From NCBI GenBank assembly GCA_027067555.1, contig JAMOVU010000070.1, positions 63,461 through 127,460 of the forward strand: 64,000 nt of DNA, given 5' to 3'. The translations under genes were made by a program, and so were the position numbers. Shown here piece by piece: positions 6,605-54,248 of the stretch. Under the pieces are notes generated by a model, which searched no databases, was not told where the DNA came from, and saw only the letters and a list, made by a program, of their open reading frames with translations. This DNA is from Candidatus Aminicenantes bacterium (lineage in GTDB: Bacteria; Acidobacteriota; Aminicenantia; JAMOAD01). Every line of letters begins with the position of its first letter. Position 1 is the first letter of the stretch.

Positions 6605-7186
6605 TTACCACCAGGAATGCTCTTTTATTCCCTTCTGAGAAGAAAAGAAAATCATATTCCTCACAATTCTTTTAAGATACTCCTCCGTCTCTCTGTCTTC
6701 ATCTTTACCTGAGTAATAGGTCATTCCGAAAGGTAAAACAAAAAGCCCCATGTGAATCAAGGGCACTATAATATTCGTAATCGCACTCTGGCTTCCATCT
6801 TCAGCAGCTGCAGATATTACTGCAACAGGCTTTCCCTGAATTATCTTATTCCTCGTATTCTCTAATGAAGTCATCCTTTCAATTAAATTCCACATAAGAG
6901 CTGATGGAGCATACCAGTGAACAGGTGTAGCGAATATTAATCCATCAGAACCTTGCATCTTTTTTGCTATAAACTCAAAATCATCTCCCAAAGAATAGCA
7001 TCTTTCAGGAGTACATTTTTTAAGATCTTCCAAAAGACAGGCTTCACATGTTTTTATCTTATATTCCTTTAAAAGAAGGATGTCCAATAAATGACCACTT
7101 TTTTCAAACTCCGACTTAAGAATATCAATCATCTTAGAATTTAAGCCATTTTCTCTATAGGAACTGTTAATTGCGAGAAACTTCAT
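6605..7186 (-). CDS. Flavodoxin-like fold NADPH-dependent FMN reductase; possible iron-sulfur flavoprotein (Isf-like)
   Basis: N-terminus MKFLAINSSYRENGLNSKMI is typical of the NADPH-dependent FMN reductase fold. A Cys cluster CEACLLEDLKKCTPERC follows, reminiscent of the compact Cys motif of Isf proteins. A weak AT-rich hairpin TGTTTTCaaGAAAACA lies just downstream at about 6581-6596. Confidence 0.5.
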   Translation of the reverse strand: MKFLAINSSYRENGLNSKMIDILKSEFEKSGHLLDILLLKEYKIKTCEACLLEDLKKCTPERCYSLGDDFEFIAKKMQGSDGLIFATPVHWYAPSALMWNLIERMTSLENTRNKIIQGKPVAVISAAAEDGSQSAITNIIVPLIHMGLFVLPFGMTYYSGKDEDRETEEYLKRIVRNMIFFSSQKGIKEHSWW

Positions 7187-9351
7187 TTTCCTTTTTCCTC
7201 CTTTTTCTTTTTTCCTTTTTTCTTTTTCTTTTTTTTCTCCTTTTTCCCTATAAAATCAACAGGAAGAAAATAAATTTTTTGTCTGTAAATATCTACTGAA
7301 GCTATTAATACCTTTATTCTTTCTCCAATGCTAAATCCCTTTTTTGTTCTCGAACCTGTTATTTTCAGCCTTTCTTTGGTGGGAACATAAAAATCATCCG
7401 TAAGCTCATAGTATGGAATAGAGCCTTCAACAAAAAAATCCTCCAATTCAACAATAATTGCAGATTGGGTAAAATTCGTAATTCTTCCGTAAAGTTCTTC
7501 GCCCACCTTATCTTTCATAAATCTGATGATTCTCCATCTCACAAGCTCCTTTTCTGCTTCATCCGCTTTTCTCTCTGTTTTTGAAGTCCAGTTACCTATC
7601 TCCTCCAATTCTGCTTCAGAATAAAAAACCTTCTTTTTCTTCTTTCTGGTAATAGCCTCTTTCACTGTTCGATGAATGATAAGATCCGGATATCTTCTAA
7701 TAGGAGAAGTAAAGTGGCAGTAATTTTCTTTTTGCAGGCCAAAGTGCCCCTTGTTTACCGGACTATATTTTGCAAGTTTCATTGATTTAAGGATTAAAAG
7801 ACTTACAAAAGTCTCCTCTTTTTTTCCACTAACCTTATCAATAATCTTTTGAAGCTGCCGTGGGATATTACCTTCCTTAGGCTCAAATTCATATCCCAAT
7901 TTACTTAAAATTTCTTTAAGATGATTTAATTTAATAGGATCAGGCTCTTCATGAATCCTGAAAAGCACAGGCACATCTTGCTCCATTAAAAATTCAGCAA
8001 TTGTTTCATTTGCCACAAGCATGAACTCTTCTATAATCCTATGAGAAAAAAGCCTTATGGCAGCCGAAATTCCTACAAGATTATCCTTCTCATACAAAAG
8101 AATTGGCTCCGGAAGATCAAAATCCAGAGAACCTTTTTTTCTCCTTTTTTTAATAAGAATATTAGCAAGCTCTTTCATAATTAAAAGAGATTTTTTTATC
8201 TCTTTATCAACATCAGTTATCTGGCTATCAATAATCCCCTGAGCCTCCTTATAAGTAAGCCTTTTTTTACTTTTAATAATCGAAGGGAAAACCTTATAAT
8301 TGAGCACATCGCCTTTTTTATTTATCCTCATCTCAACAGAAAGAGTATATCTATCCACCCCCTCCTTTAAAGAGCATAGATCTGATGAAAGTTCATGCGG
8401 AAGCATTGGGATTACTAAGCCGGGAAAATAAACAGAATTTCCCCTCCTAAAAGCTTCCTTGTCAAGAGGAGAATTCCTTTTTACATAATGAGAAACATCA
8501 GCTATATGAACACCCAAAATATAATAACCATCATCTTTTTTTATTGAAACTGCATCATCAAAATCCTTTGCATCTTCTCCATCAATTGTAAATATAATCT
8601 CATTTCTTAAATCAGCTCTATCCTTGCTCTTTTTTACTTCTCTATTCAAATTTGAAACAAAACTATTAACTTTCTCAGGAAAACTTTCTTGCAAAGAATA
8701 CTTTGCCTTAATAACTTCAATATCAACGCCCTCTTCATCCGGGAAACCAAAAACTCTTGTTATTTTTTCAATATAAATTTCATTCCTTTTTTCTTTAAGC
8801 TCCCCTTCAATTAACATCCCAGGTAATACGGAGACACCTGCCAAACTCCTTATTTCAAACTCATCATCTATTTTTGTATCAAGAGGAATAAGATATGCTC
8901 TCAATCTTTCAAGATTAAAATAGCCTATCATTTTCTTATACTTTCTTTTGGAGATTGCTATGATTTCCCCTTCTCTTTTACCTCCTCTTTCGTAAAAAAG
9001 AGCTTCTACAATATCACCATTCATTGCGTTTTTTGTCTTACCGGGAGGAATAAAAACATCTTTACTTCCATCATCTGGTATAACAAACCCAAACCCTCCC
9101 TTTGCCGCTGAATATTCTCCTCTCAATAAATTCTTAGACCTCTTAACCAAATACCTATTTCTATCCCTATATATAGCCCCTTCTTTTAAAAGTTCCTTAA
9201 GGGTATCTTTCAAAACTTTTGAATGAAATGGAAGATTTCTTTCTTTCAACTCTTTAGAGATAGAAGAATATTTTATCCCCTTATCCCTTTCCCCAACAAT
9301 TTCAAGAACATTTTTAATTAAATTGCTCTTTTTTAAATTCTTTTCTTTCAT
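7183..9351 (-). CDS. rnr: Ribonuclease R (RNB-family 3'-5' exoribonuclease) with lysine-rich C-terminal tail
   Basis: N-terminal wHTH/cold-shock OB region. RNB catalytic core reads FTIDGEDAKDFDDAVS...RRGNSVYFP. Then an S1-like domain. C-terminus is ...KKEKKKKKKKGKKKKEEKGK. Confidence 0.85.
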   Translation of the reverse strand: MKEKNLKKSNLIKNVLEIVGERDKGIKYSSISKELKERNLPFHSKVLKDTLKELLKEGAIYRDRNRYLVKRSKNLLRGEYSAAKGGFGFVIPDDGSKDVFIPPGKTKNAMNGDIVEALFYERGGKREGEIIAISKRKYKKMIGYFNLERLRAYLIPLDTKIDDEFEIRSLAGVSVLPGMLIEGELKEKRNEIYIEKITRVFGFPDEEGVDIEVIKAKYSLQESFPEKVNSFVSNLNREVKKSKDRADLRNEIIFTIDGEDAKDFDDAVSIKKDDGYYILGVHIADVSHYVKRNSPLDKEAFRRGNSVYFPGLVIPMLPHELSSDLCSLKEGVDRYTLSVEMRINKKGDVLNYKVFPSIIKSKKRLTYKEAQGIIDSQITDVDKEIKKSLLIMKELANILIKKRRKKGSLDFDLPEPILLYEKDNLVGISAAIRLFSHRIIEEFMLVANETIAEFLMEQDVPVLFRIHEEPDPIKLNHLKEILSKLGYEFEPKEGNIPRQLQKIIDKVSGKKEETFVSLLILKSMKLAKYSPVNKGHFGLQKENYCHFTSPIRRYPDLIIHRTVKEAITRKKKKKVFYSEAELEEIGNWTSKTERKADEAEKELVRWRIIRFMKDKVGEELYGRITNFTQSAIIVELEDFFVEGSIPYYELTDDFYVPTKERLKITGSRTKKGFSIGERIKVLIASVDIYRQKIYFLPVDFIGKKEKKKKKKKGKKKKEEKGK

Positions 9352-9396
9352 TTGATATACTTTAGCACAAATTTCCTTGTTTTTCTATCTTAATAA

Positions 9397-10848
9397 TTAC
9401 TTGATACTCCCATAAATATCCCCTATATCAAAATTCCCTTTTTCTTTAATATTATTTTTTATTAAATAAAAATTTGGAACAATAAAAAGGGGAACAAAAT
9501 ATTTTGTTTCAAGGGCTTTTTTATGAGCTATCCTGTATTTTTCCTCTTTTAAATTAAGATTCTCTTCCTTTTCAGCTTCCTCTATTAATTTATCAAGTTC
9601 CTTATTTGAATAATCAAATAAATTTAAAATCCCTCTTCTTCCGTCATAGGAATGAAAAAATTTTAATAAAACATCATCAACTCCCGCAGAATCACTTCCA
9701 TATCCAAAAAGAGTCATATCAAGATCTTTCAGGAAAAAGAGCTTTCTTCTCCATTCTCTATCACTTAATGGAAGTAAAACTAAATTCGGAAAACATTTTT
9801 TCAGCTCCTTAAAAATAACATTTGAAGTGATTCTACTTATTTTATTTGTCTTTCTGAAAATAAAGATAATTCTATCAAGAACCTTTTTCTTGCATTCACT
9901 TTTTTCATTTTTTACTTCGTTTTCTTTTAAAGAATATCTTAACCATGGGGGAACCAATTGATTGATACGATAGGAATTGGGAATTTTAAGTTCGTTTAAT
10001 ATCTTTTCATATGGCAAAATCCTTGAAACCAAAGTTCTTAACTTTTTGTCAGAAAAAGGTTTCTTTCTAAGATTAAAAATCAAAAAATATATATAATTTG
10101 ACGGCTTTATAAGTAAATGGAAATTTTTATCAACCTTTTTGGGAAAAGTGAAAATCTCTGAAATATCATAATTTTTTGAATTAGCAGCATCTGTAACATT
10201 AAAATAGAACTGTATTTCTTCTATACGTGAGGGCTTTTTCCAATATTTCAAAAACCTTCGTAATATTACTTTATCTTTCCCAATTTCGTAAAAGTAAAAG
10301 GGTCCTGTCCCGAGAAAAATTCTTTTTTTATTATCAGAACTTTTTGAAAAAAGATTATTCCCCAAGTAAACAAGTTTAATATCTGAAAGAAGAATTAAAA
10401 AATTATCACTTCTTTTTTTCAACAAAAAAGAAATTTTGTAATGACTCAAAACTTTCACCCGATCTATTATTTTGGCAATATTTGAATATGGAGAATAAAG
10501 CTCTCTTGTAGAAATCCTCACAAAATTCTTTTTTACAATCTCTGCGGTAAGTTCTTCCCCATTGTGAAACTTTACCCCTTTTCTTAAATCAAAAATCCAC
10601 TCTCTCGGGCTGGGATTATACCATCTTTCTGCTAAGAAAGGTACAACTTCTAAATTCTGTTTAATCTTGACCAATGTTTCAAAAACATTTGAATTAACTT
10701 TACAATCGGTGGACCATCCAGTTTGATGGGGATCAAAAATAAACACTGTATTGGGAAAAGATATCTTTAAGATTTTTTTCTCTTTTCTGCATCCAATCAA
10801 ACTAAAAATAAAAAAGATTAACAAAAGGACAAAAAATCTTTTTTTCAT
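9397..10848 (-). CDS. Lipoprotein with solute-binding protein family 5 (oligopeptide/nickel-type SBP_bac_5) domain
   Basis: Lipobox MKKRFFVLLLIFFIFSLIGC. SBP5-like N-terminal lobe reads WSTDCKVNSNVFETLVKIK...VVPFLAERW...WIFDLRKGVKFHNGEELTAE. Its start overlaps the stop of the upstream histidine kinase by 4 nt, so the two are an operon. Confidence 0.6.
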   Translation of the reverse strand: MKKRFFVLLLIFFIFSLIGCRKEKKILKISFPNTVFIFDPHQTGWSTDCKVNSNVFETLVKIKQNLEVVPFLAERWYNPSPREWIFDLRKGVKFHNGEELTAEIVKKNFVRISTRELYSPYSNIAKIIDRVKVLSHYKISFLLKKRSDNFLILLSDIKLVYLGNNLFSKSSDNKKRIFLGTGPFYFYEIGKDKVILRRFLKYWKKPSRIEEIQFYFNVTDAANSKNYDISEIFTFPKKVDKNFHLLIKPSNYIYFLIFNLRKKPFSDKKLRTLVSRILPYEKILNELKIPNSYRINQLVPPWLRYSLKENEVKNEKSECKKKVLDRIIFIFRKTNKISRITSNVIFKELKKCFPNLVLLPLSDREWRRKLFFLKDLDMTLFGYGSDSAGVDDVLLKFFHSYDGRRGILNLFDYSNKELDKLIEEAEKEENLNLKEEKYRIAHKKALETKYFVPLFIVPNFYLIKNNIKEKGNFDIGDIYGSIK

Positions 10849-12557
10849 TCCACCCTCGGCATATAAACAATAAATTCAGCTCCTTTCCCCTCTTCAGATT
10901 TCACCTCCATAAAACCATTCTCATTCTGAACTATAATATAACTGGAGAAAAGACCCAGTCCGGTGCCTTTTTCTTTTGTTGTAAAAAAAGGTTCAAAAAT
11001 TTTATTCTTAACTTCATCAGGAATTCCCGGTCCATTGTCCTTTACAGAAATCATAATATACTTACCTTTTTTAAGAACCGGACTATCCTCTCCCAATAAA
11101 AAGTCTTCAACTTTAAGCCATATTATTTTTTCCTCATTCTTTTCTATTGCCTCTATTGCATTAAGAAAAATATTTATTAAGACTTGAACCATTTTTTCTT
11201 TATTACACTTGCAATAAGCATTCTTAGTTTTAATTTCTTCTCTCAAATCTATCTTTGTCAATCTTGCTGAAATCAATTCAAGTGTTTCTAAAATTATTTC
11301 ATCCACAAGATATATCTTTCTCTCTTCCTCTTTCGCATGAGAAAATTTAAGAAAATTATAAATAATTTCCTGAGTTTCTTTCAGAGCCTCTTTCATGTTT
11401 TCAACATACATTGAAAACTCAGAAGAGGCTTTTTCTTCTAAAATTTCAACATAACCTGCAACTACACCGAGCATATTCTTAATATCGTGAACAATACTTG
11501 CAATAAAAAAGCCCAAGCTCTCCATTTTTTGAGCTATTATTAATTTTTGCTGCAATTCTATTTCAGATGTAATGTCATCTATTATAATAACTTTAAAACC
11601 TCCTTCTACATCATAGGAAGATATGTTATAAGTTCTTCCCTCCAACTTAAGAATTTCATTTTCTTTAATCGACGGGAAAAGCTCGAAGATTTCCCATAAA
11701 AGCCTTTTGTTTCTCTCATACCTTTCCACAAAGACTTTGTTTTTAAACATTATCTTTAAATTTTTGTCAACAATAAAAATTCCCTTCGGAGAACTATTTA
11801 ACACGGACTCAAGAAATCTTCTAATTTCCTGCTCTCTCTTAAAGCTCTTTTCTATTTCCTGAGTCATCTCGCCAAGAGAGGTAGATAATCTTCTGATCTC
11901 ATAAGTACCTGAATTTGCCATATTTTTTAAAAGATCTTTTTCCCTGTTCCCTTCAACATAACTTAACAAGTTTTCTATTGACCTTGTGATTTTTTTCACC
12001 CTTCTATTAACAAAAACCAATAATAGAATAAAGAGAGGAACATTAATAAGTAGAATACCAAAAAAAGATTTTGAAAATACTTTCTTTAAAACGAAAAAAT
12101 CAAAATAATATACATAAGAATAACGATGGCTTCCATCCTCCTCAAAAACAGGAACTACTATAATTAAATAATTTTTATTTTCAATTACATGAGAAGAAAC
12201 ATCCCTAACATAATTTAAAGGGAACTTAATCATCATTTTTTTTTCTTTTTTAAAAAAATCCCTGTAAGAATAAATAAGATTAAAATACACGTCCACTATT
12301 TCAAAATTTTCAAAGCTTTTTTCTTCTCTCACAAGTTTTGATATGAAGGAATGAAATTTTATTGGAAAATGTTTAAGATATAATTTTCGCTGGTGGTTTA
12401 TATTATAAACGGTATTTGCAGTAAAAGAAAAATACCGTTCCTTTAGAGCACTTTGCTCATTTTTTGTAAATATGAAAGAAATGATAAGTGAATTTAAAAA
12501 GACAAAAACAAGAAAAAAAGAGAAAAATGAAAGAAATAATTTTTCTTTTAATTTCAT
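10845..12557 (-). CDS. Sensor histidine kinase (2 TM with periplasmic sensor, PAS-like, HisKA, HATPase_c)
   Basis: TM1 at the N-terminus and a second TM at about residues 165-185. H-box is IASIVHDIKNMLGVVAGYVEILE. N, G1 and G2 boxes are present (NIFLNAIEAI...DNGPGIP...GTGLGLFSSYIIVQ). No DNA-binding response regulator is adjacent. Confidence 0.8.
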   Translation of the reverse strand: MKLKEKLFLSFFSFFLVFVFLNSLIISFIFTKNEQSALKERYFSFTANTVYNINHQRKLYLKHFPIKFHSFISKLVREEKSFENFEIVDVYFNLIYSYRDFFKKEKKMMIKFPLNYVRDVSSHVIENKNYLIIVVPVFEEDGSHRYSYVYYFDFFVLKKVFSKSFFGILLINVPLFILLLVFVNRRVKKITRSIENLLSYVEGNREKDLLKNMANSGTYEIRRLSTSLGEMTQEIEKSFKREQEIRRFLESVLNSSPKGIFIVDKNLKIMFKNKVFVERYERNKRLLWEIFELFPSIKENEILKLEGRTYNISSYDVEGGFKVIIIDDITSEIELQQKLIIAQKMESLGFFIASIVHDIKNMLGVVAGYVEILEEKASSEFSMYVENMKEALKETQEIIYNFLKFSHAKEEERKIYLVDEIILETLELISARLTKIDLREEIKTKNAYCKCNKEKMVQVLINIFLNAIEAIEKNEEKIIWLKVEDFLLGEDSPVLKKGKYIMISVKDNGPGIPDEVKNKIFEPFFTTKEKGTGLGLFSSYIIVQNENGFMEVKSEEGKGAEFIVYMPRVE

Positions 12558-12593
12558 AATAAAAATCCGCTTCCCGTTGCGGGAAGCGGATTT
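12551..12593 (-). terminator. Rho-independent terminator after the OPT gene: perfect 14-bp stem, 3-nt loop, followed on the minus strand by a U-tract
   Basis: Plus strand reads AAATCCGCTTCCCG-TTG-CGGGAAGCGGATTT at 12563..12593. On the minus strand the stem is followed by TTATTATG, where that ATG is the annotated start of the histidine kinase gene. Confidence 0.6.
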
Positions 12594-12599
12594 ATCTAT

Positions 12600-14639
12600 T
12601 TATTCTGCTATTTGAGTTGCCGGTTCATCCGGGTCCCCTGCTTTTTTTAGAGGCAAAGCGACAAGATAAAAACCGATAAGGACCAAGAAAACCAATCCTA
12701 ACAAATAAGAAGCATGCTCAAAAATTGCCGGAATTGAAATATCAAAGAACTTTAAGGCAGCAATAATAAGGCCGGTTAAAGCTTCTCCTGCTATTAATCC
12801 CGAAGCAAGTAGAACTCCTGTATTCTCCACCCTTGCTTTTTGATTGTCATTGAGCTTATTTTTCTTAATTTTACTATCAACAATCCACTTTATCATACCA
12901 CCAACAAAAATCGCAAAAGTTGTTTCAAGGGGAAGATACATACCAACAGCCACCAGCATAGGTGACTTAACCTTTACCATTACAAAGGCAAGCCCCATCA
13001 ACATACCTACAACAACCAAAAGCCATGCCATGTTTCCACCAACAATTCCTTTCGTTAAGTCAGCCATAAGACCAGCCTGAGGTGCAGGCAATGCTTTACC
13101 GCCAAAACCTTCTCCTCCTCCTTTAATATCTCCTATATGTAAAACCAAAAGAGGAAAATACATAATTAAAGAACCAACAAGAACTCCTATTAAATCTCCT
13201 ACCTGCATCTTCCAGGGGGTTCCTCCAAGTATATGTCCGACCTTCAAATCCTGAAGCATTTCTCCTGCAACAGCAGAAGATACACAAACAACTGCCGCCA
13301 CTCCCAGAACCGCAGCAATTCCGGCAGTTCCTTTAGCACCGATTACAAGCATTAAAAGAGCGGCTATAATTAATGTAGATAGAGTTAACCCTGAGATCGG
13401 ATTATTGGAAGATCCTATTAAACCTACAAGGTTTCCTGAAACAGCTGCAAAAAAGAAACCAGCAACTGCCATTACAAGAGCAGCTGTTAACGCTGCATTC
13501 CAAGAATGAGTAAACACATAATAGATAATTGTCATTGCTATAAGTGTTAGGAAAAGGCCTATTGCCACGATCCTAAAATTAAGGTCTTTGTCTGTTCTCT
13601 TTGTTGAAGTTTCCTGTTTTGTAGCTTTCTTAACATCGCTTACAGCTCTTTTCATCCCAAGAGCAAGATTTTTTCTCATTTTATAGAGAGTGTAAACAGC
13701 TCCAACTAACATACCACCAACAGCAATAGGTCTTACAATTGATTTCCAAATCAATATTGCTGTCTTATACCACAATTCTGCACCTTCAACACCTCCTCCA
13801 ACAGGAAAATAGGTAGTCAGATTTGGGCCTGTAAAGAATATTACCAGTGGCACAAAGAGTCCCCATGCAAGAACACCACCGGCAAAGTTCAAAGCAGCTA
13901 ACTCCGGTCCTATTATATATCCAACTCCTATATAGGCAGGGCTTATAGCTGGTCCCGCAAAGGTGGCTTTTCCTCCTACTTTTATTTTAGGAAGGATTTC
14001 CTTACCGGCTAATTTTAATTTACCAATTGAAAGATTGAGAGTCTTTCCCAATCCAAAGATAAAATCTTTTGAAGCTGCAAAAAATTTAAAAACACCCAAA
14101 AGATAGATTAAACTACCAACACCCATAGCTTGAAAGAGATATTTCGCTCCTTCTCCTCCTCTCTGCCCAGCCTTATGAATTTCCGAAGCTGCGACAGACT
14201 CAGGAAAAGGCAATTCTGGATCTTCAACCATAACTTTTCTTAAAACAGTTACAAAGAGGATACCTAAAACACCTCCTACAAGCATCAATGCTGATGACTT
14301 CCAGTATGCTTCAACACTATCAAACTTTTTCCATACTCCAGAAATAACAAAAGCAGGAATAGTGAAAATTGCTCCTGCAGCTATAGATTCTCCGATGGAA
14401 CCTATCGTTCTGGCTATATTTTCTTCAAGGATTGAACCTTTAACCAATTTCAATATAGCCATTCCGATAACAGCAGCAGGATAAGTAGCTGCAATGGTCA
14501 TACCGGCTCTAAGTCCGAGGTATGCATTGGCAGCTCCAAGCACAACTGTCATAAATAGACCAAGTATAACAGCTCTTAATGTAAATTCTTTAAGATCTGT
14601 CTCATCGGGTACAAAAGGGGTAAATTTCTCCTTACTCAT
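12600..14639 (-). CDS. OPT-family oligopeptide transporter
   Basis: 679 aa and polytopic. The N-terminal region FTLRAVILGLFMTVVLGAANAYLGLRAGMTIAATYPAAVIGMAIL is characteristic of the bacterial OPT superfamily. It is Gly/Ala-rich throughout. Confidence 0.8.
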   Translation of the reverse strand: MSKEKFTPFVPDETDLKEFTLRAVILGLFMTVVLGAANAYLGLRAGMTIAATYPAAVIGMAILKLVKGSILEENIARTIGSIGESIAAGAIFTIPAFVISGVWKKFDSVEAYWKSSALMLVGGVLGILFVTVLRKVMVEDPELPFPESVAASEIHKAGQRGGEGAKYLFQAMGVGSLIYLLGVFKFFAASKDFIFGLGKTLNLSIGKLKLAGKEILPKIKVGGKATFAGPAISPAYIGVGYIIGPELAALNFAGGVLAWGLFVPLVIFFTGPNLTTYFPVGGGVEGAELWYKTAILIWKSIVRPIAVGGMLVGAVYTLYKMRKNLALGMKRAVSDVKKATKQETSTKRTDKDLNFRIVAIGLFLTLIAMTIIYYVFTHSWNAALTAALVMAVAGFFFAAVSGNLVGLIGSSNNPISGLTLSTLIIAALLMLVIGAKGTAGIAAVLGVAAVVCVSSAVAGEMLQDLKVGHILGGTPWKMQVGDLIGVLVGSLIMYFPLLVLHIGDIKGGGEGFGGKALPAPQAGLMADLTKGIVGGNMAWLLVVVGMLMGLAFVMVKVKSPMLVAVGMYLPLETTFAIFVGGMIKWIVDSKIKKNKLNDNQKARVENTGVLLASGLIAGEALTGLIIAALKFFDISIPAIFEHASYLLGLVFLVLIGFYLVALPLKKAGDPDEPATQIAE

Positions 14640-14648
14640 CTCTCCTCC

Positions 14649-15020
14649 TTAGTAGGATTTTTTTATTACTTCATAAATTGTCTTAATTAAAACATCCGGC
14701 TTTACTGGTTTTTTCAAATAAGCAGCAGCCCCCCTCTCCATTGCCTCTTTTATATCCTCTTCCCCCTGCTCTGTTGAAAGCATTATCACCGGAATTTCTT
14801 TAAAATCATCTGTCTCTTTAACTCTTGATAAAAACTCCATTCCATCCATGTTAGGCATATTTATATCACAGATAATTAAATCTATAGGGTTCATAGTTAA
14901 AACATTCAAGGCCTCAAGCCCATCACCCGCCTCTAAAATTTCTCCCTTGAAGACTTTTTTTAATGCTATTTTAACCATTTTTCTTATTATTGCAGAATCA
15001 TCAACCAATAAAAAATTCAT
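14649..15020 (-). CDS. CheY-like single-domain response regulator (receiver only)
   Basis: Acidic pocket LLVDDS, phospho-acceptor Asp in LIICDINMP, Thr in IMLST and Lys in YLKKP. 123 aa with no output domain. Confidence 0.8.
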   Translation of the reverse strand: MNFLLVDDSAIIRKMVKIALKKVFKGEILEAGDGLEALNVLTMNPIDLIICDINMPNMDGMEFLSRVKETDDFKEIPVIMLSTEQGEEDIKEAMERGAAAYLKKPVKPDVLIKTIYEVIKKSY

Positions 15021-15871
15021 TTAGCACCCCCTTCTGGTTTTCTGTAAACCATAACTCCCTTCAATGGTTTCAACAAAAATAAATTAGTAACTTTAAAAAG
15101 AGTATCAGACATCCCGAGAAACAGATAACCTCCCGGATTTAAAGAGTTGTAAAGATTGTTTGCAACTATCTTTTTAGATTCAAGGTCAAAATAAATCAAA
15201 ACATTTCTACAAAAAATCACATCAACATTCTTAATTGTAGCTGTTTGAGTCTTTGAGAAAAGATTTACTACACTAAATGTCACCATCTTCTTTATTTCAT
15301 TGTTGAGTTCATAAAAACTTCCCTTTTTTGTAAAATACTTTTTCTTCAATTCTTCCGGAGTATTTCTAAGATCAGGTTCCGAGAAAATTCCCGAACGGGC
15401 GGTATTAATAACCTCTGTGTTTATATCTGTACCATAAATATTTATCTTAACTCCCTTATCTGTAAAACCATGCTCCTTAAGCATAATAGCTATAGAATAG
15501 GGTTCCGCCCCATTCGAGCATGCAGCACTCCAGATTCTTATACTTTTAAGAATATCATTTTTTTTCTTTTCAAGAAGCTCCGGGATAACAACATCTACAA
15601 GAGCTTTAAGCTGAGGCATCTCCCTAAAAAAATAGGTCTCGTTTACAGTTAAAAGATTATATAAATCTTTAAGCTCATCCTTTCCCCTTCTATCAAATTT
15701 CAGAAAACTAAGATACTCTTTAAAAGAATTAAATTTTGATTCTTCCAATCTTTTTACTATTCTCTTCTTAAAAAAATTCCACTGACTTCCTTCAAAAGCA
15801 AGACCGGTCTGCTCATAAAGCAATTTTTTTATTAATAAAAGCTCATCCTCTTTTATTTGTTCAACCCTCAT
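15017..15871 (-). CDS. cheR: CheR-type protein-glutamate O-methyltransferase
   Basis: Motifs TYFFRE, IWSAACSNGAEPYSIAIML, ARSGIF, IFCRNVLIYFD and PGGYLFLG. It overlaps both neighbours by 4 nt. Confidence 0.85.
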   Translation of the reverse strand: MRVEQIKEDELLLIKKLLYEQTGLAFEGSQWNFFKKRIVKRLEESKFNSFKEYLSFLKFDRRGKDELKDLYNLLTVNETYFFREMPQLKALVDVVIPELLEKKKNDILKSIRIWSAACSNGAEPYSIAIMLKEHGFTDKGVKINIYGTDINTEVINTARSGIFSEPDLRNTPEELKKKYFTKKGSFYELNNEIKKMVTFSVVNLFSKTQTATIKNVDVIFCRNVLIYFDLESKKIVANNLYNSLNPGGYLFLGMSDTLFKVTNLFLLKPLKGVMVYRKPEGGAK

Positions 15872-18312
15872 TTTTTACTCCAATCAAATTCAAAGTTTAA
15901 AAGGAATGGATCTATTTTTTCTCTCTCAAGTTTTTCTATCATCTTTATTGAATCATCGCCTGTTTCTTTAAAAATAGAATAGAGATGAAGATAAGCAGTT
16001 CCCCTCACACTTACGGCTTTTTCTTTTAATGCTAACTTTAAATGATTTATAGATTCTTTATCTTTTATTCGTCTGTAAACAATCAGGAAAGCTCTTTTCT
16101 CACCATAAGATCTTAAATTCTCATATATTTTGATAACTTCATTTTTATGTGATTCAGAGATCCCCTCCAAATACTCAAAAAGCTCTGGTATAAATTTTTT
16201 ACGAGAAAACATATAGTAAATTAAATTTGTACAAAAAACATTCATATTTTTTAAAGCTTCCAATATGGAAGTTAAGAGAAAATCAGGATAATCTTCTTTT
16301 TGATTTTCAGTAAGTTTTTTTATAGATTCCACAGCAGGAAAATATTTAGAGTTTCCCAAAATTCTGATAGAAGAAGATAAAATATTATAATCATTCGAGT
16401 TTTCAAGTATTTCCTTAACCTTTTCCAAAACAGCCTCTTCTTCCACTTTAATTCCGCTTAAAGCTTCCAAAACAGCCGTTAAAAGAAATGAATCATCTGT
16501 ATTAAGAAGATTCTTCAACTCTTCATAATAATAGGCATCAGGTTTTTTACCTATACTCTCCACTGTAAGATAAATAAATTGCTCATTGTTGTTCTCTTTT
16601 AAAATTTCTTTAAACTTTTTCTTTATTCTATCATCTTCCAATTCTGAAAGAGTATAAAACAGGAGAGAAAAATTCACATCCATCTCAGGATCAATAAATT
16701 CCAAAAGATAATTAACAACCTCAGATGTTCCTATTCTTCCCAATGAAATAATGACCTCATCCTTAACTTCATCACTCTCATCATTAATAAGTGCTGCAAT
16801 CGCCGAAAGTTTGTCTTCATCCAGCTTATCTTTTTTTTCTTTGTAATAATAACCAAGACTTCTAAGAGTCATAGCTCTTACATTAGGGGATGCATCACCT
16901 AAAAATAATGCATAATTTTCATCTAAAAAATCTGATTTCATTATTCCCAATGCCTTTATTGCCATCTCCCTTAAAGTGGGATTTTCATCATTCGCATATG
17001 TTTTGATCTCCTCTTCAAGTTCAACATACCTGGATACAAGATGAATAGCTTCCCTTAGAACACTTTCATCGGTTTCATCTTTAATTATATCAATAAGGCT
17101 TTTAAGGTCTTCTCTTTCTAACCAATTTCCCCATTCTTTTATAGTAAATACCTTTATTATTGGGTCAAAAGAGGATTTCACACATTTAAAAAACCAATCC
17201 TTTTTCTTTTCCTTTTTTTTCTCCCCTATATATCTAATAATTGATTTTACCACAAACTTTCCATACTTTCCCGAAGAAAGAATCTCCCAAGGGTCAACAT
17301 CTTCAACAGAGTTTTCCAATAAAACTCTTTCCGCGCTTTCATTTATCTCTTCCCTTTCAAGATATGGCAATAAAGAGCTTAATGGGACCTTTGCTCCTAC
17401 CCAGATTATTGAATCAAAGACTTTAATTAATTGCTCATTGGTAAAATTTTTTACCAAGGAAAGAATTTTCCCGATAAATTGGCCCGCTACTCTTTCTCTC
17501 GTTTTTTCTTTAATCGCTTCAAGCACCCACTCTAAATTTTCTTCTTTCAATCTCTCCTTAATATTACTTAAAATTTCAGCCCTTGCAAGAACTGCCTGGG
17601 TAATAATATCCTTATCCTCGGTCTTTAAAAGTTTTAAAAGAGGGAAAAAAGCTCTTTCGTCTTTTATCTTACCCAAAGCTTCTATTGCAGGCAATTGCAA
17701 AATCTCAGAGTCAAGATACTCTATCAAATAAGGGACAGGATAAGAGTCTCCTATTTCTCCAAGGGTAACTATATATGGAATCTTTGACCATTCATCTTCT
17801 TCTTTTAACATTCTTTCTGTTAATATTTCAACTTCAAGCTCAGCTTTCAAAAGCCCTAAAGCCTCTATTGCACTTTCTCTGACATTTTGATCAGGATCGT
17901 CAAGCATCTTTACAATTGAATCAATTGCTTCTCTTGCCCTAACCATTCCCAATGTATTAAGAGAAAGAATTCTCACATCAACATCATCACTTTCAAGATT
18001 TTTTACAAGAAAGGGAATCACTATATCTCCCCTCTCTTTTAAAATAGATCTTGCTGCATTTCTTTCTCTTGCATCCTGTGATCTAATCTTTTCTACTAAA
18101 AGAGGAACATCCTCCTTTCCTATTACTTCTATCAAAGCTTCTACAATTGCATTCCTTACCTGCCATAGCGGATGATTTACCTTCTCTATCAGAATTTTTC
18201 TTGCTTCTCTATCAGGAATTTGAGCTAAAACCTGTACCCCCATTAATGCTTGTTCAAGATCTTCGGAATCCAACATTTCTCTATAATATTTCAATTCCTC
18301 ATTTTCACTCAT
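15868..18312 (-). CDS. Large HEAT / PBS-lyase HEAT-like repeat protein (814 aa)
   Basis: Repeated 30-40 aa units of the form ...VR.AA..ALG..., for example HPLWQVRNAIVEALIEVIG, DVDVRILSLNTLGMV, DQNVRESAIEALGLL and NVRAMTLRSLGYY. No enzymatic motif is recognised. Confidence 0.7.
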   Translation of the reverse strand: MSENEELKYYREMLDSEDLEQALMGVQVLAQIPDREARKILIEKVNHPLWQVRNAIVEALIEVIGKEDVPLLVEKIRSQDARERNAARSILKERGDIVIPFLVKNLESDDVDVRILSLNTLGMVRAREAIDSIVKMLDDPDQNVRESAIEALGLLKAELEVEILTERMLKEEDEWSKIPYIVTLGEIGDSYPVPYLIEYLDSEILQLPAIEALGKIKDERAFFPLLKLLKTEDKDIITQAVLARAEILSNIKERLKEENLEWVLEAIKEKTRERVAGQFIGKILSLVKNFTNEQLIKVFDSIIWVGAKVPLSSLLPYLEREEINESAERVLLENSVEDVDPWEILSSGKYGKFVVKSIIRYIGEKKKEKKKDWFFKCVKSSFDPIIKVFTIKEWGNWLEREDLKSLIDIIKDETDESVLREAIHLVSRYVELEEEIKTYANDENPTLREMAIKALGIMKSDFLDENYALFLGDASPNVRAMTLRSLGYYYKEKKDKLDEDKLSAIAALINDESDEVKDEVIISLGRIGTSEVVNYLLEFIDPEMDVNFSLLFYTLSELEDDRIKKKFKEILKENNNEQFIYLTVESIGKKPDAYYYEELKNLLNTDDSFLLTAVLEALSGIKVEEEAVLEKVKEILENSNDYNILSSSIRILGNSKYFPAVESIKKLTENQKEDYPDFLLTSILEALKNMNVFCTNLIYYMFSRKKFIPELFEYLEGISESHKNEVIKIYENLRSYGEKRAFLIVYRRIKDKESINHLKLALKEKAVSVRGTAYLHLYSIFKETGDDSIKMIEKLEREKIDPFLLNFEFDWSKK

Positions 18313-19514
18313 TTTACCTCCCTTTCAATTATTTCCCTTGTATCCCTTGCTATTACAAGCTCTTCATTGGTTGGCACCACTAAAATTCTGACCTTAGAAT
18401 CTTTATCCGAAATATCAACCTCCTTCTTTTTAGCTTTTTTATTCTTTTCCTTATCTAAAATTATACCAAAAAAATCCAATCCTTCAAGTGCCTTTTCTCT
18501 AATAAAAGATGAGTTTTCACCGATCCCCCCTGTAAAAACTATTATATCCGCTCCTCCCAAAACAGCTAAATATGCTCCTATGTATTTTTTTAAGCGATAA
18601 GCATAAATGGTAAGAGCGAGCTCTGCTCTCTTTTCTCCATTTAATGCGGCTTTTTCAAGATCTCTCATATCACTTGAAATTCCGGAAATTCCCAGAACTC
18701 CGCTTTTTTTGTTTAACAAATTATCTATTGAAGTGGCACTCATCTTTTTTTCTCTTAAAAGAGCTACGGGAATAGCAGGATCAAGATCCCCACTCCTTGT
18801 TCCCATCACAAGGCCTTCAAGAGGAGTATATCCCATAGAGGTATCCATTGATTTACCACCAGAAATAGCAGTTATAGAGGCTCCATTCCCAAGGTGAGCT
18901 GAAATAATTTTCACTTTATTATAATCCATTTTAACAAGCTGAGCGGCTCTTTTCGAAACATATCTATGGGAGGTTCCATGAAAGCCGTATCTTCTAATCT
19001 TCTGTTTTTCGTAAAGTTCATAGGGAAGAGCATAAAGAAAAGCATAATTTGGTATAGTCTGATGAAAGGAAGTATCAAAAACAGCCACCTGAGGAATTTC
19101 GGGTAAAATTTTTGACATCGCTTTTATTCCCATAATATTAGCTGGATTATGAAGAGGGGCTAATGGAATACACTCTTCCAATCTTTTCATCACTTCCTCT
19201 GTTATAAGAGATGATTCCGTAAAATACTCTCCACCATGAACAACCCTATGTCCCACCGCTTTAATCTCTTTTATATCATTAATCACACCATAATCTTCAT
19301 CCACAAGTACCTTTAATATTAATTCAACAGCTTCATCATGATCATTTATCTCTCTCTCAATAAAAAGATCTTTCCTTTCAGTTATATGCTTTAATCTCGA
19401 CCCATCAAGACCTATTCTTTCAACTATTCCTTTTGCTAAAACCTCTTCTTTATCAATATTAAAGAGTTGATACTTAACCGATGAAGAACCACTATTGAGG
19501 ACCATTATGATCAT
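18309..19514 (-). CDS. ackA: Acetate kinase
   Basis: N-terminus is MVLNSGSSSVKYQLF. Conserved acetate/propionate kinase core follows (RVVHGG, HLGNGASI, GLVMGTRSGDLDP, VFTGGIGENS). Its stop overlaps the HEAT-repeat gene start by 4 nt. Confidence 0.9.
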   Translation of the reverse strand: MIIMVLNSGSSSVKYQLFNIDKEEVLAKGIVERIGLDGSRLKHITERKDLFIEREINDHDEAVELILKVLVDEDYGVINDIKEIKAVGHRVVHGGEYFTESSLITEEVMKRLEECIPLAPLHNPANIMGIKAMSKILPEIPQVAVFDTSFHQTIPNYAFLYALPYELYEKQKIRRYGFHGTSHRYVSKRAAQLVKMDYNKVKIISAHLGNGASITAISGGKSMDTSMGYTPLEGLVMGTRSGDLDPAIPVALLREKKMSATSIDNLLNKKSGVLGISGISSDMRDLEKAALNGEKRAELALTIYAYRLKKYIGAYLAVLGGADIIVFTGGIGENSSFIREKALEGLDFFGIILDKEKNKKAKKKEVDISDKDSKVRILVVPTNEELVIARDTREIIEREVK

Positions 19515-19536: not shown

Positions 19537-19564
19537 ATTATAATTCTAACAAAAATCCGAACAA
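19537..19564 (-). promoter_or_regulatory. Candidate sigma70-type promoter for ackA (minus strand: TTGTTC, 16-nt spacer, TATAAT)
   Basis: Minus-strand reading is TTGTTCggatttttgttagaatTATAAT. It lies about 20 nt upstream of the AGGAGG RBS and the ackA ATG. Confidence 0.35.
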
Positions 19565-19614
19565 TTTTCTATTATCAAAGTAGATTTAGACCCCCTATAA
19601 AAAATAATCTATAT

Positions 19615-24104: not shown

Positions 24105-25061
24105 TTATTTAACAGTTATTAATTCAATAAAAGAGTAAAGAAGTTTCTCATCAAACCCTTCTCTATGCTCCAACATAAATTTGGCAGCTTCAATGGGCTC
24201 TTTTGCTTTCGAATAAGACCTTGTAGTTGTTATTGCATCAAAAACATCAACGATTGTACCAATCCTTCCAAAAAGAGAGATCTGCCTACCTTTCAAACCC
24301 TGAGGATAACCAGTCCCATTGAATTTTTCATGATGCTGGCCAATAATAAGCATACTCTGTTCGGATACAAGCCCGCTTTGCTTTGCAAGCTCAACTCCGT
24401 ACTCAGGATGCTTTTTCATTTCCTCCCATTCCGCAGGAGTAAGTTTACCGGGTTTATTAATTATTTTTGGATCAACCATTGATTTTCCCAGATCATGCAA
24501 AAGCGCTCCCACTCCCAACTCTCGTAAGGTTTTATCATCAAATGCTCCTATCTTATTCCCTAAAGCCACTGCAAATGTACAAACATTTACCGAATGTGTA
24601 AATGTATAATAATCATGAGCTCTTATCTGAAGGAGGTTTACAAAAGCATCAGGTCCACTTAAAATAAAGTCAACCGTATGATTAACAACTTCCTTTGATC
24701 TCTTTACAACCTCTCCCCTTTTCGGATGCTCAAAAATATCTTCCACAACATTAACAGCAGCTTCGTAAAGATATGTAGCTTTTACACGCTGATCTACATT
24801 TGGATCTTTTAAAATTCCATCAAGGTTTTTCTCCATATATTCTCTGTATTTTTTCCTGTCTTCTTTTTTTATGTATAAAAACTTTACCCCGCTTGCTTTT
24901 AAATTTTCAATATCATCCGCTGTTATTATTATATTTTTATCTCTGTACAAAACAAGCTTATCCTTTACTTTCATATAGAGACTAAAATTTACTATTGAAT
25001 CAGGTCTGAATTTCTCAAGACTTATCGGCATATAGTACAACTCGTATCTCGGACCAGTCAT
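24105..25061 (-). CDS. HD-GYP domain protein (candidate cyclic-di-GMP phosphodiesterase) with an uncharacterised roughly 130-aa N-terminal domain
   Basis: Motifs HDLGK and HHEKFNGTGYPQGLKG (the HD plus GYP signature). Confidence 0.8.
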   Translation of the reverse strand: MTGPRYELYYMPISLEKFRPDSIVNFSLYMKVKDKLVLYRDKNIIITADDIENLKASGVKFLYIKKEDRKKYREYMEKNLDGILKDPNVDQRVKATYLYEAAVNVVEDIFEHPKRGEVVKRSKEVVNHTVDFILSGPDAFVNLLQIRAHDYYTFTHSVNVCTFAVALGNKIGAFDDKTLRELGVGALLHDLGKSMVDPKIINKPGKLTPAEWEEMKKHPEYGVELAKQSGLVSEQSMLIIGQHHEKFNGTGYPQGLKGRQISLFGRIGTIVDVFDAITTTRSYSKAKEPIEAAKFMLEHREGFDEKLLYSFIELITVK

Positions 25062-34688: not shown

Positions 34689-34777
34689 TAAAAAATTTTC
34701 TCAAGAGTAATTTTTTTTAACAGATCAAACATAAAGGGAATATTGACTGGTATTTCTTTTTAATATATACTTTTTCA

Positions 34778-36892
34778 ATGAAAAAAAGACTTATTATTAT
34801 TCTACTTTTTGCGTTAAGTTTAAGTTTATTTTCTATCCCATCTTACTCCAAAACAAAAAAAACAAAACTATCCACCAAAGAACTAATAAAAAGATTACCA
34901 AAAAAGTACAAAGATTGGCTGGATCTTGTTTATTACATTATTACCCCGATTGAAAAAAAGGTCTTTTTACAGTTAACCAACAACAGAGATAGAGATGCTT
35001 TTATTAAATTATTCTGGCAACATAGAGATCCCACACCTGGAACCCCCGAAAATGAATTCAAAGAGGAACATATAAGAAGATTTAAATATGCAAACAAACA
35101 CTTTAAAACAACACGTCCAGGCTGGATGACAGATATGGGGAAAATTTACATAATTTTAGGACCTCCAAATACTCACAATAATTATGATAATGAATTCGGA
35201 ATTTACCCTTTGAAAATATGGGGCTATTATGGAGACAAAAAGTTAGGCCTCCCGGCTTATTTTAGAATAATTTTCTTTAAAAGAAACGGAATAGGTGAAT
35301 ATGTTTTGTATGATCCAGCCTTTGATGGTCCCGCTTCTATTTTAAGAGATACAGAAGGAGTTGACATAACAGATATAAATTCCATCTATAGAAAATTAAA
35401 GGAGATAGCCCCCTCCATAGCAAAATCAGTTTTATCCCTGATTCCGGGAGAAGAATCCTTTTTTTCTATGCCAACCACAAGAGGTACTGTTCTCTTGAGC
35501 CAAATTTTTGAACTTCCTAAAAAGAGAGTAAAAGTTAATTATGCAAGACAATTCCTGGATTTTAAAGGGATTGTGAAAGTAGATTATGCCATGAATTATG
35601 TTGAAAATGATTTTCTCTATACCCTTAATTATGACCCTTCAACAGGATTAAATTTTCTTCACTTTTCCATAAAACCCCATAGAATATCATTAGCTTATTC
35701 TTCTGAAAAAGATAAATATTATTTTGCCTTAAAGCTTGATGTGAGCTTAAAAAAAGGAGATTTAATTGTATATCATTATTCAAAGAGATATTCTTTTTAT
35801 TTCACAGAAGATGAAGTGAACACAAGACTCAAACCATCGGGGTTAGCAATAAATGACATGTTTCCAATTATACCGGGAGATTATCAATTAATCGTCCTCT
35901 TGCAAAATTCTGTAAAGAGAGAATTTACATACTCAAAGAATGAAATTAAGGTCCCCCTCTCACCTAAATCACCTCATTTAGTAGGTCCTATCCCGACATA
36001 TAAAGTTGATAGAGCAGCTCTCGATGTGGTCTACAGACCCTTTAAATTCGGCTATTTTCTTTTGAATATTGAGCCTAAAAAGTTCTTTTCTCTTGCGGAT
36101 AAAATCAAGATATTCGTAGGAGCAAATAATTGTGAAAAATTAAAAAATGGAAAGATAGAGGTAATAGTTAAGAATAGACCGGGATATCCAAAGTTCTCAA
36201 AAACTTTTGAAGTACAAACCCCAAAAGATAAGAATACTTTTTATAAAAGCTTTTTACTTTCAGGGGAGCTTCCTTCTGCTGTGTTCGATGTAACCGCAAG
36301 ATTATATAGTGCCAATATTCCCATAGATACAAAAGAAAGCAATTTTACGATTTCTCCAATAAGAAATGTATCTCACCCAATGGAAGCTTTCAAAGTAATG
36401 GACAAGAGAAATAAAGCTTTACACTATTACAGAATTGCAAATGAATACGAAAATCTTGGAAATCTGAAGAAAGCAGAATATTATTATGAACTTGGCTTTT
36501 CAAAGATAAAAGATTTCTACGAAGGAATAATTCGTTATACAAAACTTTTAATTAAACAAAATAAATATGAAAAAGCCCTTAGTGTTGTGGAAAGTTTAAA
36601 AGGAGTCAAAAAATTTGACTTTGAATACTATGCTCTCAAAGGAGAAGCTCAGTTCTACCTGAATGATTTTGAAAATGCCCTGAACAATTTGCTTAAAGCC
36701 AACAAAATCTATGATAGTGATGTCCATGTGATAAATCTTTTGGGGTTAACCTTCCTCAGAATGGAAAATTTTGATCAGGCACTGAAAGCATTTAAGGCAT
36801 CTCTCTCAATAAATGAAGATCAACAGGAGATAAAAAATCTTATTAAAAGAATAAAATCCATTCAGAAAAAGAAAGCTGATAAGAAGAATTAA
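34778..36892 (+). CDS. Secreted GWxTD-domain protein with C-terminal TPR repeats
   Basis: Signal peptide MKKRLIIILLFALSLSLFSIPSYS. Core motif RPGWMTDMGKIYIILGPP matches the GWxTD signature. The C-terminus has TPR-like repeats (ANEYENLGNLKKAEYYY...). Confidence 0.55.
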   Translation: MKKRLIIILLFALSLSLFSIPSYSKTKKTKLSTKELIKRLPKKYKDWLDLVYYIITPIEKKVFLQLTNNRDRDAFIKLFWQHRDPTPGTPENEFKEEHIRRFKYANKHFKTTRPGWMTDMGKIYIILGPPNTHNNYDNEFGIYPLKIWGYYGDKKLGLPAYFRIIFFKRNGIGEYVLYDPAFDGPASILRDTEGVDITDINSIYRKLKEIAPSIAKSVLSLIPGEESFFSMPTTRGTVLLSQIFELPKKRVKVNYARQFLDFKGIVKVDYAMNYVENDFLYTLNYDPSTGLNFLHFSIKPHRISLAYSSEKDKYYFALKLDVSLKKGDLIVYHYSKRYSFYFTEDEVNTRLKPSGLAINDMFPIIPGDYQLIVLLQNSVKREFTYSKNEIKVPLSPKSPHLVGPIPTYKVDRAALDVVYRPFKFGYFLLNIEPKKFFSLADKIKIFVGANNCEKLKNGKIEVIVKNRPGYPKFSKTFEVQTPKDKNTFYKSFLLSGELPSAVFDVTARLYSANIPIDTKESNFTISPIRNVSHPMEAFKVMDKRNKALHYYRIANEYENLGNLKKAEYYYELGFSKIKDFYEGIIRYTKLLIKQNKYEKALSVVESLKGVKKFDFEYYALKGEAQFYLNDFENALNNLLKANKIYDSDVHVINLLGLTFLRMENFDQALKAFKASLSINEDQQEIKNLIKRIKSIQKKKADKKN

Positions 36893-36938
36893 AAAGTTTG
36901 CTTTGATATCTTTTTTAATCAGTATGATAAAATAAGAA

Positions 36939-52213: not shown

Positions 52214-52312
52214 GATAATCTCACCTTCCTTTATTCAACTTATACGCAGTGTTTGACAAAACCCACAAAATATAATATTTTAGGAAATTCACAAAAAGTT
52301 TGGAGGTTTTCT

Positions 52313-54240: not shown

Positions 54241-54248
54241 GTGAAAAA

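Follow-up and report, generated by a model that had tools for sequence, protein, structure and literature searches.

A conserved ackA-HEAT-cheR-cheY-OPT operon of Candidatus Aminicenantes and the likely origin of its signalling genes in HEAT-containing Che clusters

Proteins with HEAT-type repeats are known from chemosensory (Che) systems of both bacteria and archaea, and we have compared them with a locus of Candidatus Aminicenantes (assembly GCA_027067555.1, contig JAMOVU010000070.1, positions 63,461 to 127,460 of the forward strand), where the genes for acetate kinase (ackA), a HEAT-repeat protein, the methyltransferase CheR, a single-domain CheY-type receiver (REC) and an OPT oligopeptide transporter follow one another. 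This whole stretch of 64,000 nucleotides is called the window hereafter, and coordinates without a locus label refer to it. In Myxococcus xanthus, the che7 genes given by locus tag in the table of PMC3945109 are those of CheY7 (6965), CheA7 (6964), CheW7 (6963), the cytoplasmic Mcp7 (6962), CheR7 (6960) and CheB7 (6959), and the slot of tag 6961 is absent from that table. Darnell et al. (2014, J Bacteriol 196:3160), whose work is cited in PMC11514114 and PMC9040617, are reported to have identified the HEAT protein Cpc7 as the output target that CheY7 binds. In haloarchaea, the HEAT_PBS protein OE2401F is encoded in the che gene region, interacts with Che proteins and is needed for Che output, its deletion abolishing switching (PMC2666748). 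Two further cases are relevant to individual components, i.e., the CheR-TPR fusions WspC and FrzF in chemosensory pathways of alternative function (PMC3447774), and CiaR of S. pneumoniae, a response regulator activated by acetyl-phosphate without its kinase (PMC4295557). Overall, our analyses make it very likely that the five genes of the window constitute one operon conserved in Candidatus Aminicenantes, and that its HEAT-CheR-CheY part originated in HEAT-containing Che clusters.

In the map of open reading frames (ORFs), the five genes form a chain on the minus strand. The chain begins with ackA (18309-19514, 401 aa; Acetate_kinase PF00871, 1e-157) and continues with the gene of the 814-aa HEAT-repeat protein (15868-18312; HEAT_2, 3e-59 over 6 stretches), a full-length cheR encoding a protein-glutamate methyltransferase (15017-15871; CheR_N + CheR, 6e-60) and the gene of the 123-aa REC (14649-15020; Response_reg, 5e-28), and it ends with the gene of the 679-aa OPT transporter (12600-14639; OPT PF03169, 8e-93). 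Neighbouring genes overlap by 4 nt at three junctions and are separated by 9 nt at the fourth, in agreement with the initial annotation, which had been made from the sequence alone. The strong terminator that it placed at the end of the chain is also found, as an intrinsic-terminator-like hairpin of 14 bp with 8 G-C pairs and a T-run directly 3' of OPT (12563-12593, minus strand). Upstream of ackA, a consensus scan gives a promoter-like site (TAGAAA-17-TAGAAT with TG in front; 19543-19571, minus strand), which lies within the 100-nt spacer between a thioredoxin gene and ackA and, as a consensus match only, is a candidate operon promoter. Since the junctions overlap or nearly do so, a terminator follows OPT and a promoter-like site precedes ackA, the five genes are very probably transcribed as one operon. 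An Rfam scan of the whole window has returned no match to leaders or riboswitches. The domains proposed earlier for CheR, the receiver, the HEAT protein and OPT, as well as that of acetate kinase, are all matched in searches with hidden Markov models, and the NCBIfam calls for the five operon proteins are concordant with those of Pfam. OPT scores 396 bits with TIGR00733, whose cutoff is 182, and ~15 hydrophobic segments are predicted in it.

The same gene neighbourhood is conserved beyond the window. The five-gene block is intact in seven non-identical Candidatus Aminicenantes relatives, whose HEAT proteins are 92, 77, 75, 54, 45, 45, and 41% identical to that of the window, and its junctions in these relatives range from -14 to +23 nt. 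On the other hand, the flanks of the block are all different between lineages (thioredoxin/lgt/ileS; a REC-HD_5 regulator with ftsK; the nuo operon; fakA/degV). The ackA-HEAT junction, on whose conservation the initial annotation had made its reading depend, is kept at every HEAT orthologue locus. This orthologue family is narrow, with identities of 100, 92, 75–78, 53–54, 45, and 41%, followed by a cliff to ~24%. Across the lineages, identity to the window amounts to 72–98% for REC, 62–93% for CheR, 60–95% for OPT, 62–94% for AckA, and 41–92% for HEAT. In comparison with the closest relative (L011 among our locus labels; synonymous rate dS ~0.5–0.66), the ratios of non-synonymous to synonymous substitution rate (dN/dS) are 0.05 for AckA, 0.055 for HEAT, 0.066 for CheR, and 0.021 for REC; for OPT, which lies past the end of the L011 contig, the ratio is 0.026 against the 77% relative L009 (dS ~1.5). 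These values show strong purifying selection on all the operon genes tested. Because the block recurs intact with tight junctions amid unrelated flanks, and under purifying selection, it is a selected operon but not a chance adjacency. As in the window, OPT is followed by a GC-rich hairpin in L009, L013, L003, L005, and L104, each time of differing sequence.

We also note that in the 54% lineage (L003, 7557-8639) a gene for a REC-HD_5 (HD-GYP-like) response regulator lies divergently and directly upstream of ackA, and that the window encodes an HD_5 protein without a detected receiver at 24105-25061.

The partners that CheR and CheY usually have are absent around the locus. Pfam scans of every plausible ORF with 100 aa or more (49 ORFs), together with tblastn of the window using CheA, CheW, methyl-accepting chemotaxis protein (MCP), CheB, STAS, and ODP queries, have detected no CheA, CheW, MCPsignal or CheB_methylest in the 64 kb, which upholds the earlier claim, and STAS and ODP have no tblastn match there either. 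The initial annotation had also considered that CheA, CheW, and MCP genes might follow in the same operon just outside; none belongs to the operon, and in the seven relatives no CheA, CheW, MCP or CheB is encoded within 10 kb on either side of it. CheB_methylest is absent from the window and from the orthologous loci, yet it is present in the outgroup clusters L021–L023 described below.

Outside Aminicenantes, the closest relatives of the window CheR (46–53% identity) are all encoded directly behind a HEAT gene of ~800 aa. In L021, the cluster reads PilZ-STAS-HEAT-CheR-CheB-CheY-CheA-CheW-CheW and adjoins flagellar rod genes, while L022 (a Nitrospinota metagenome-assembled genome) and L023 share the order HEAT-STAS-CheR-CheB-CheY-ODP. 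The window HEAT protein is collinear with the HEAT proteins of these three clusters (for L022, residues 6-718 align with 3-716, E 1e-47), and the core conserved across phyla is formed by its N-terminal ~230 residues. REC in turn is 52–55% identical to the CheY proteins of L021–L023 and of L027. With the HEAT alignment as the only seed, a metagenome scan has returned 80 loci. Among the 47 loci with enough downstream sequence, 44 have a same-strand CheR gene no more than 1.5 kb downstream of HEAT; CheB is present at 31 of 37 loci, and 16 of 28 have CheA upstream, while AckA lies directly upstream of HEAT at only three loci, all of Aminicenantes type. The dominant soil type, e.g., L070, has the order CheY-CheA-CheW-MCP(707 aa)-HEAT(719 aa)-CheR-CheB-REC-hybrid histidine kinase. 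Reduced forms have also been observed. L027 (integrase-HEAT-STAS-CheR-CheY-ODP) is kinase-less, without CheB or CheA, and in L020 (8611-12099) a 128-aa REC is followed by a 1032-aa HEAT::CheR fusion with a C-terminal CheR domain, with no CheA or MCP within 9 kb upstream of the two. Because the full clusters and the reduced forms L027 and L020 share the trio, HEAT, CheR, and CheY appear to be a recurrent core. As Rosetta-stone evidence, the fusion speaks for HEAT and CheR being direct partners, and a functional link between the two is strongly supported by the gene arrangements. As judged from sequence and gene order, the trio should be a portable signalling cassette derived from HEAT-containing, Che7-type clusters, with CheA, CheW, MCP, CheB, and STAS lost at the locus.

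Two side observations concern these outgroup clusters. A gene for an ODP-family di-iron protein stands directly after CheY in L022 (12623-13414), L023 (12391-13185), and L027 (14189-14977). We take the Pfam family ODP to be a family of oxygen or iron sensors, and its position next to CheY in three HEAT-STAS-CheR clusters hints at a redox or O2 input to that branch. In L021, genes for a YcgR-like PilZ protein (PilZNR + PilZ; 6651-7636) and for a STAS protein lie ahead of HEAT; PDB entry 5Y4R, a CheR1 match in the search with the window CheR, is presumably a complex of CheR1 with a PilZ protein (MapZ).

Now the locus can be compared with the described systems. We take MXAN_6961 to be the gene of Cpc7. 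Che7 is like the window in that a HEAT gene lies immediately upstream of a short, TPR-less CheR, and that a single-domain CheY belongs to the same cluster. The Che7 order from tag 6965 to 6959 matches CheY-CheA-CheW-MCP-HEAT-CheR-CheB in L070, the likeness to Cpc7 being one of gene order alone. Unlike Che7, the window operon lacks CheA, CheW, a cytoplasmic MCP and CheB, and carries ackA and OPT instead; moreover, its HEAT protein is only 21–25% identical to the HEAT proteins of Che7-type clusters. The closest relatives of all three cassette proteins come from L021–L023, L027, and L028, i.e., from Nitrospinota and other uncultured bacteria, where the clusters contain a STAS protein, usually CheB, often ODP, and sometimes CheA and CheW, but none has ackA or OPT. 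For such HEAT-STAS-CheR-CheB-CheY(-CheA-CheW) clusters, no description has been located in the literature. The haloarchaeal OE2401F resembles the window HEAT protein in its HEAT-type repeats and in being encoded in a che region. It differs in being archaeal, in its association with CheF and the archaellum, in binding CheD and CheF with no reported link to CheR, and in belonging to full systems containing CheA. In WspC and FrzF, CheR is joined to an alpha-solenoid interaction module, and the HEAT::CheR fusion of L020 can be viewed as the HEAT counterpart of them. However, their module consists of TPR but not HEAT repeats, it is located C-terminal of CheR, and their pathways are complete with CheA and MCP.

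The initial annotation did not recognise the operon as a described system. This cannot be maintained for the HEAT-CheR-CheY core, which is the signature of Che7-type clusters, with HEAT_PBS present in haloarchaeal chemotaxis as well. Nevertheless, our literature search has found no description of a form without kinase, receptor, and esterase inside an ackA-OPT operon, and none of the breadth of the HEAT-upstream-of-cheR signature or of the HEAT::CheR fusion; the papers retrieved concern only Che7 and Cpc7, haloarchaeal OE2401F, CheR-TPR proteins, and acetyl-phosphate acting on response regulators. The Aminicenantes form can be described as a reduced version of a system that is known in part.

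The cassette proteins keep the features expected of their families. The window CheR aligns to CheR1 of P. aeruginosa (5XLY) and CheR of Salmonella (1AF7); both the N-terminal helical domain and the S-adenosylmethionine-binding domain are present, and the motifs NETxxFR, RIWSAACSxGxEPYS, and FCRNVLIYF are intact. In REC, the residues D7, D8, D52, T83, Y101, and K104 are all present, as aligned with an E. coli CheY sequence, together with a CheY-like DINMPNMDG motif, and among the NCBIfam models CheY matches best, with a score under the equivalog cutoff. No transmembrane (TM) segment is predicted in the HEAT protein, which is acidic, soluble, and cytoplasmic. Its AlphaFold2 (AF2) model is a continuous solenoid of ~52 helices (pLDDT 91, pTM 0.79), of which the longest have 23-24 residues. 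A Foldseek search with this model has retrieved generic scaffolds only (CAND1, SF3B1, karyopherin-beta), and no enzymatic or MCP-like domain. The HEAT protein is predicted to be the scaffold on which both CheR and the CheY-like receiver dock. Near its C-terminus (15868-15920), the motif D801-P802-F803-L804 is invariant in all the 15 Aminicenantes orthologues and absent from the HEAT proteins of L021–L023, and it may be a candidate docking motif. The closer orthologues have an aromatic tail, NF.F.W, after DPFL. We have considered this tail as a CheR-tethering pentapeptide similar to NWETF and rejected it, since its residues do not conform to xWxxF and the 41–45% orthologues lack it.

Our overall best explanation, which we put forward tentatively, is a conserved operon whose Che7-type-derived cassette contains a HEAT-docking receiver tuning peptide uptake or fermentation. 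In this scheme, the CheY-like receiver would be phosphorylated on D52 and, in one of its phosphorylation states, would dock on the HEAT solenoid, in the way that CheY7 of Myxococcus binds Cpc7. CheR would bind the same scaffold, in the manner that the HEAT::CheR fusion illustrates, and would either methylate glutamates of a non-MCP type or simply be positioned by the scaffold. By analogy with these cases, contacts of HEAT with both CheY and CheR are somewhat favoured. The output would be a post-translational tuning of peptide uptake or of acetate-forming fermentation. If acetyl-phosphate is the donor, with its pool set by the flux through AckA and Pta, the cassette would be a kinase-independent reader of the fermentative state. 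We regard acetyl-phosphate as the leading candidate for the main phosphodonor, though a rather uncertain one; it is attractive because AckA is co-expressed, CheA and the CheA-dependent CheB are lost, and CheY-type receivers are known to react with it. Autophosphorylation of E. coli CheY with acetyl-phosphate, reportedly described by Lukat et al. in 1992, is well established. E. coli CheY (in vitro) and CiaR offer examples of kinase-free receiver phosphorylation in which ackA/pta flux sets the donor pool; they differ from the window in that the regulator does not share an operon with ackA and has a cognate kinase, beside which acetyl-phosphate is a secondary input. It is improbable that the trio is a self-contained device free of kinase and receptor, in which REC reads the acetyl-phosphate set by AckA, CheR methylates HEAT, and the scaffold gates peptide import or fermentation.

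Several observations weigh against parts of this scheme, and we gather them here. HEAT-repeat similarity is inherently noisy, and the kinship of the HEAT protein with Cpc7 has been judged from gene order. The AF2 model of the HEAT protein has no long antiparallel coiled-coil hairpin of the kind used for signalling and adaptation. When MCP-type methylation motifs were scanned with three regular expressions, neither [ASTG]2-x2-[EQ]2-x2-[ASTG]2 nor the Glu-rich [AS]-x-x-E-E-x-[AST], which the initial annotation had proposed to look for, was found in any of the eight Aminicenantes HEAT orthologues tested, while the positive-control MCPs of L070 and L022 contain 4 strict sites and 1, respectively. 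As none occurs in the orthologues and the controls do match, we have rejected MCP-type motifs as a support for HEAT methylation, although sites of other kinds are possible. For the earlier proposal that HEAT is the substrate of CheR, the link between the two proteins stands, on the strength of the downstream CheR genes and the fusion, but the MCP-type methylation motif does not.

AckA, for its part, is an ordinary enzyme of housekeeping type. It matches TIGR00016 with 528 bits against a cutoff of 293, aligns over its full length (residues 2-398) with T. maritima AckA (2IIR, E 2e-160), and shows the motifs NSGSSS, GHRVVHGG, FHGTSH, GTRSGD, and PTNEE when read by eye. Its operon-linked homologues (62–94% identity) grade without a break into Thermotogae AckA (60–62%); given this gradation and the canonical sequence, a specialised signalling paralogue has been rejected. 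Furthermore, the AckA of a fermenter drains acetyl-phosphate into acetate and ATP, and makes acetyl-phosphate only when running from acetate. Whether acetate kinase produces acetyl-phosphate, as the initial annotation stated, therefore depends on the direction in which it runs, and in a fermenter it mainly consumes it.

The position of ackA also has a metabolic explanation. We have checked the gene context of two AckA homologues of similar identity, L104 and L105. L105 has ackA alone, while in L104 (31% GC; 8001-11303) ackA and OPT are adjacent with a 63-nt spacer and without HEAT, CheR or REC. The AckA and OPT of L104 are 67% and 77% identical to those of the window, respectively, and the latter value exceeds those of the trio-bearing L005 (75%), L007 (64%), and L003 (62%), L104 being nested among the trio lineages. 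Most simply, this can be read as L104 having cleanly lost just the three signalling genes. Such a loss implies that the trio behaves as one functional cassette; at the same time, an ackA-OPT pair without the trio implies that the position of ackA is independent of the cassette. A metabolic pairing of ackA with OPT explains this position at least as well, and weakens the idea that AckA replaces CheA. Actually, the two genes represent the exit and entry steps of peptide fermentation, i.e., acetate formation and peptide import, and their pairing fits the peptide-scavenging lifestyle proposed for Aminicenantes (PMC6736579).

Behind the operon, two neighbouring minus-strand genes offer another candidate source of phosphoryl groups. 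They encode an orphan membrane histidine kinase (HK; 10845-12557, 570 aa; HisKA + HATPase_c by Pfam, 2 TM segments) and an SBP_bac_5 solute-binding lipoprotein of peptide/nickel type (9397-10848; Pfam and NCBIfam; lipobox ending in ...SLIGC), and the second gene overlaps the first by 4 nt. The lipoprotein is a probable extracytoplasmic co-sensor of HK, and the pair is peptide- or nickel-sensing in appearance. The HK start codon lies 4 nt past the T-run of the OPT hairpin (12557-12600, minus strand), and its ribosome-binding region would fall in the 3' arm of this hairpin; the arrangement is repeated in L009 and L013, though their hairpins differ in sequence. As the HK start abuts the terminator, there is no room for a promoter of its own, which suggests that the HK-SBP genes are expressed by terminator read-through or by hairpin-controlled translation.

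In view of this pair, an ordinary two-component input has to be weighed, in which SBP_bac_5 would sense peptides or nickel and signal through HK to REC and then to HEAT, with ackA present by metabolic pairing only. The initial annotation was correct that HK has no partner regulator, since HK and REC are the only HATPase_c kinase and the only receiver of the 64 kb, 2 kb apart, and neither has another partner nearby. HK-SBP stands behind OPT and the hairpin in the window clade (75–92%) and the 54% clade, its expression probably needs read-through from the operon, sensor and transporter share a peptide theme, and the ackA-OPT pair exists without the trio. Yet the loci of the 45% lineages (L005, L008) and of the 41% lineage (L007, L015, L026) do not contain HK-SBP; there, OPT is followed by a CDP-alcohol phosphatidyltransferase or a nitroreductase gene, and the trio is fully kept. 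HK and SBP also evolve much faster than REC (42–68% and 40–58% identity versus 89–94%), and a strong hairpin separates the operon from the HK-SBP unit in every lineage. We consider such an input unlikely, though not negligible, and give about the same weight to the HK-SBP pair as the phosphodonor, which makes it nearly as good a candidate as acetyl-phosphate. Less probable still is an unlinked CheA elsewhere in the genome as the donor, and we judge similarly the idea that the trio is the adaptation and output arm of a complete pathway, whose CheA, CheW, MCP, and possibly CheB are encoded elsewhere, with CheR methylating MCPs and HEAT being accessory as in Che7. In the closest outgroup cluster, L021, the orthologous CheY is directly followed by CheA and two CheW genes, and flagellar genes are close by; L022 and L023 have no CheA at the locus though CheB is kept, which means that split clusters occur. 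The window CheR has all its canonical motifs and both domains, and the lack of methylation motifs in the HEAT protein fits a conventional MCP substrate elsewhere. On the other side, the window and the 10-kb flanks in the relatives hold no such Che component, the CheA-dependent CheB has been lost from the cassette together with CheA, CheW, and STAS, and the cassette is fixed in a metabolic operon but not near motility genes. In the papers on Aminicenantes that we read, neither chemotaxis nor motility is described for this lineage, which is weak, negative evidence. It is very improbable, finally, that three unrelated units (ackA; HEAT-cheR-REC; OPT) merely inherited their adjacency with no functional coupling. 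All the operon-bearing genomes come from one candidate phylum, and the trio can be missing while ackA-OPT persists, as such a view would expect. However, the block has stayed intact while its flanks changed in every lineage, the junctions are too tight for separate promoters, and a terminator is found only after OPT. In addition, the saturation of synonymous sites between the lineages means that rearrangements have had time enough to occur. The conserved operon with a HEAT-docking receiver remains our preferred reading.

Some other features of the window are recorded here for completeness. No Pfam match at E <= 1e-5 is obtained for three ORFs between 26688 and 31795, of which two are large, overlap each other and lie on the minus strand (669 and 791 aa), while the third, of 211 aa, is on the plus strand. 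The region 31800-40344 encodes a 962-aa Ser/Thr protein kinase with TPR repeats, adjoining a gene for a GWxTD/TPR protein and a VWA-TPR-BatD (Bat-like) gene set. At 52253-55442, an acyl-CoA dehydrogenase gene is followed by EtfB and then by EtfA with an N-terminal 2x[4Fe-4S] ferredoxin domain, possibly an electron-bifurcating module of Bcd/Etf type.

The operon bears on three questions, i.e., the role of orphan CheR and CheY at loci or in genomes without CheA and MCP, the role of the HEAT proteins that recur in the Che clusters of Myxococcus, haloarchaea, and many uncultured bacteria, and whether acetyl-phosphate ever serves as the primary physiological phosphodonor of a CheY-type receiver. 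Since the gene set is small and defined, these questions are directly testable. The HEAT-upstream-of-cheR signature is widespread, extending from full Che7-like clusters to kinase-less remnants and a fusion, and it points to a direct CheR-HEAT partnership. For Aminicenantes, which are abundant uncultured peptide scavengers of the subsurface, the operon connects signalling with both ends of peptide fermentation, its entry and its exit step. If the trio were, against the odds, the self-contained device considered above, a non-chemotactic uncultured lineage would have turned parts of the chemotaxis machinery into a sensor of metabolic state, and HEAT, CheR, and CheY would be the minimal conserved core of a widespread and largely unstudied Che-like branch.

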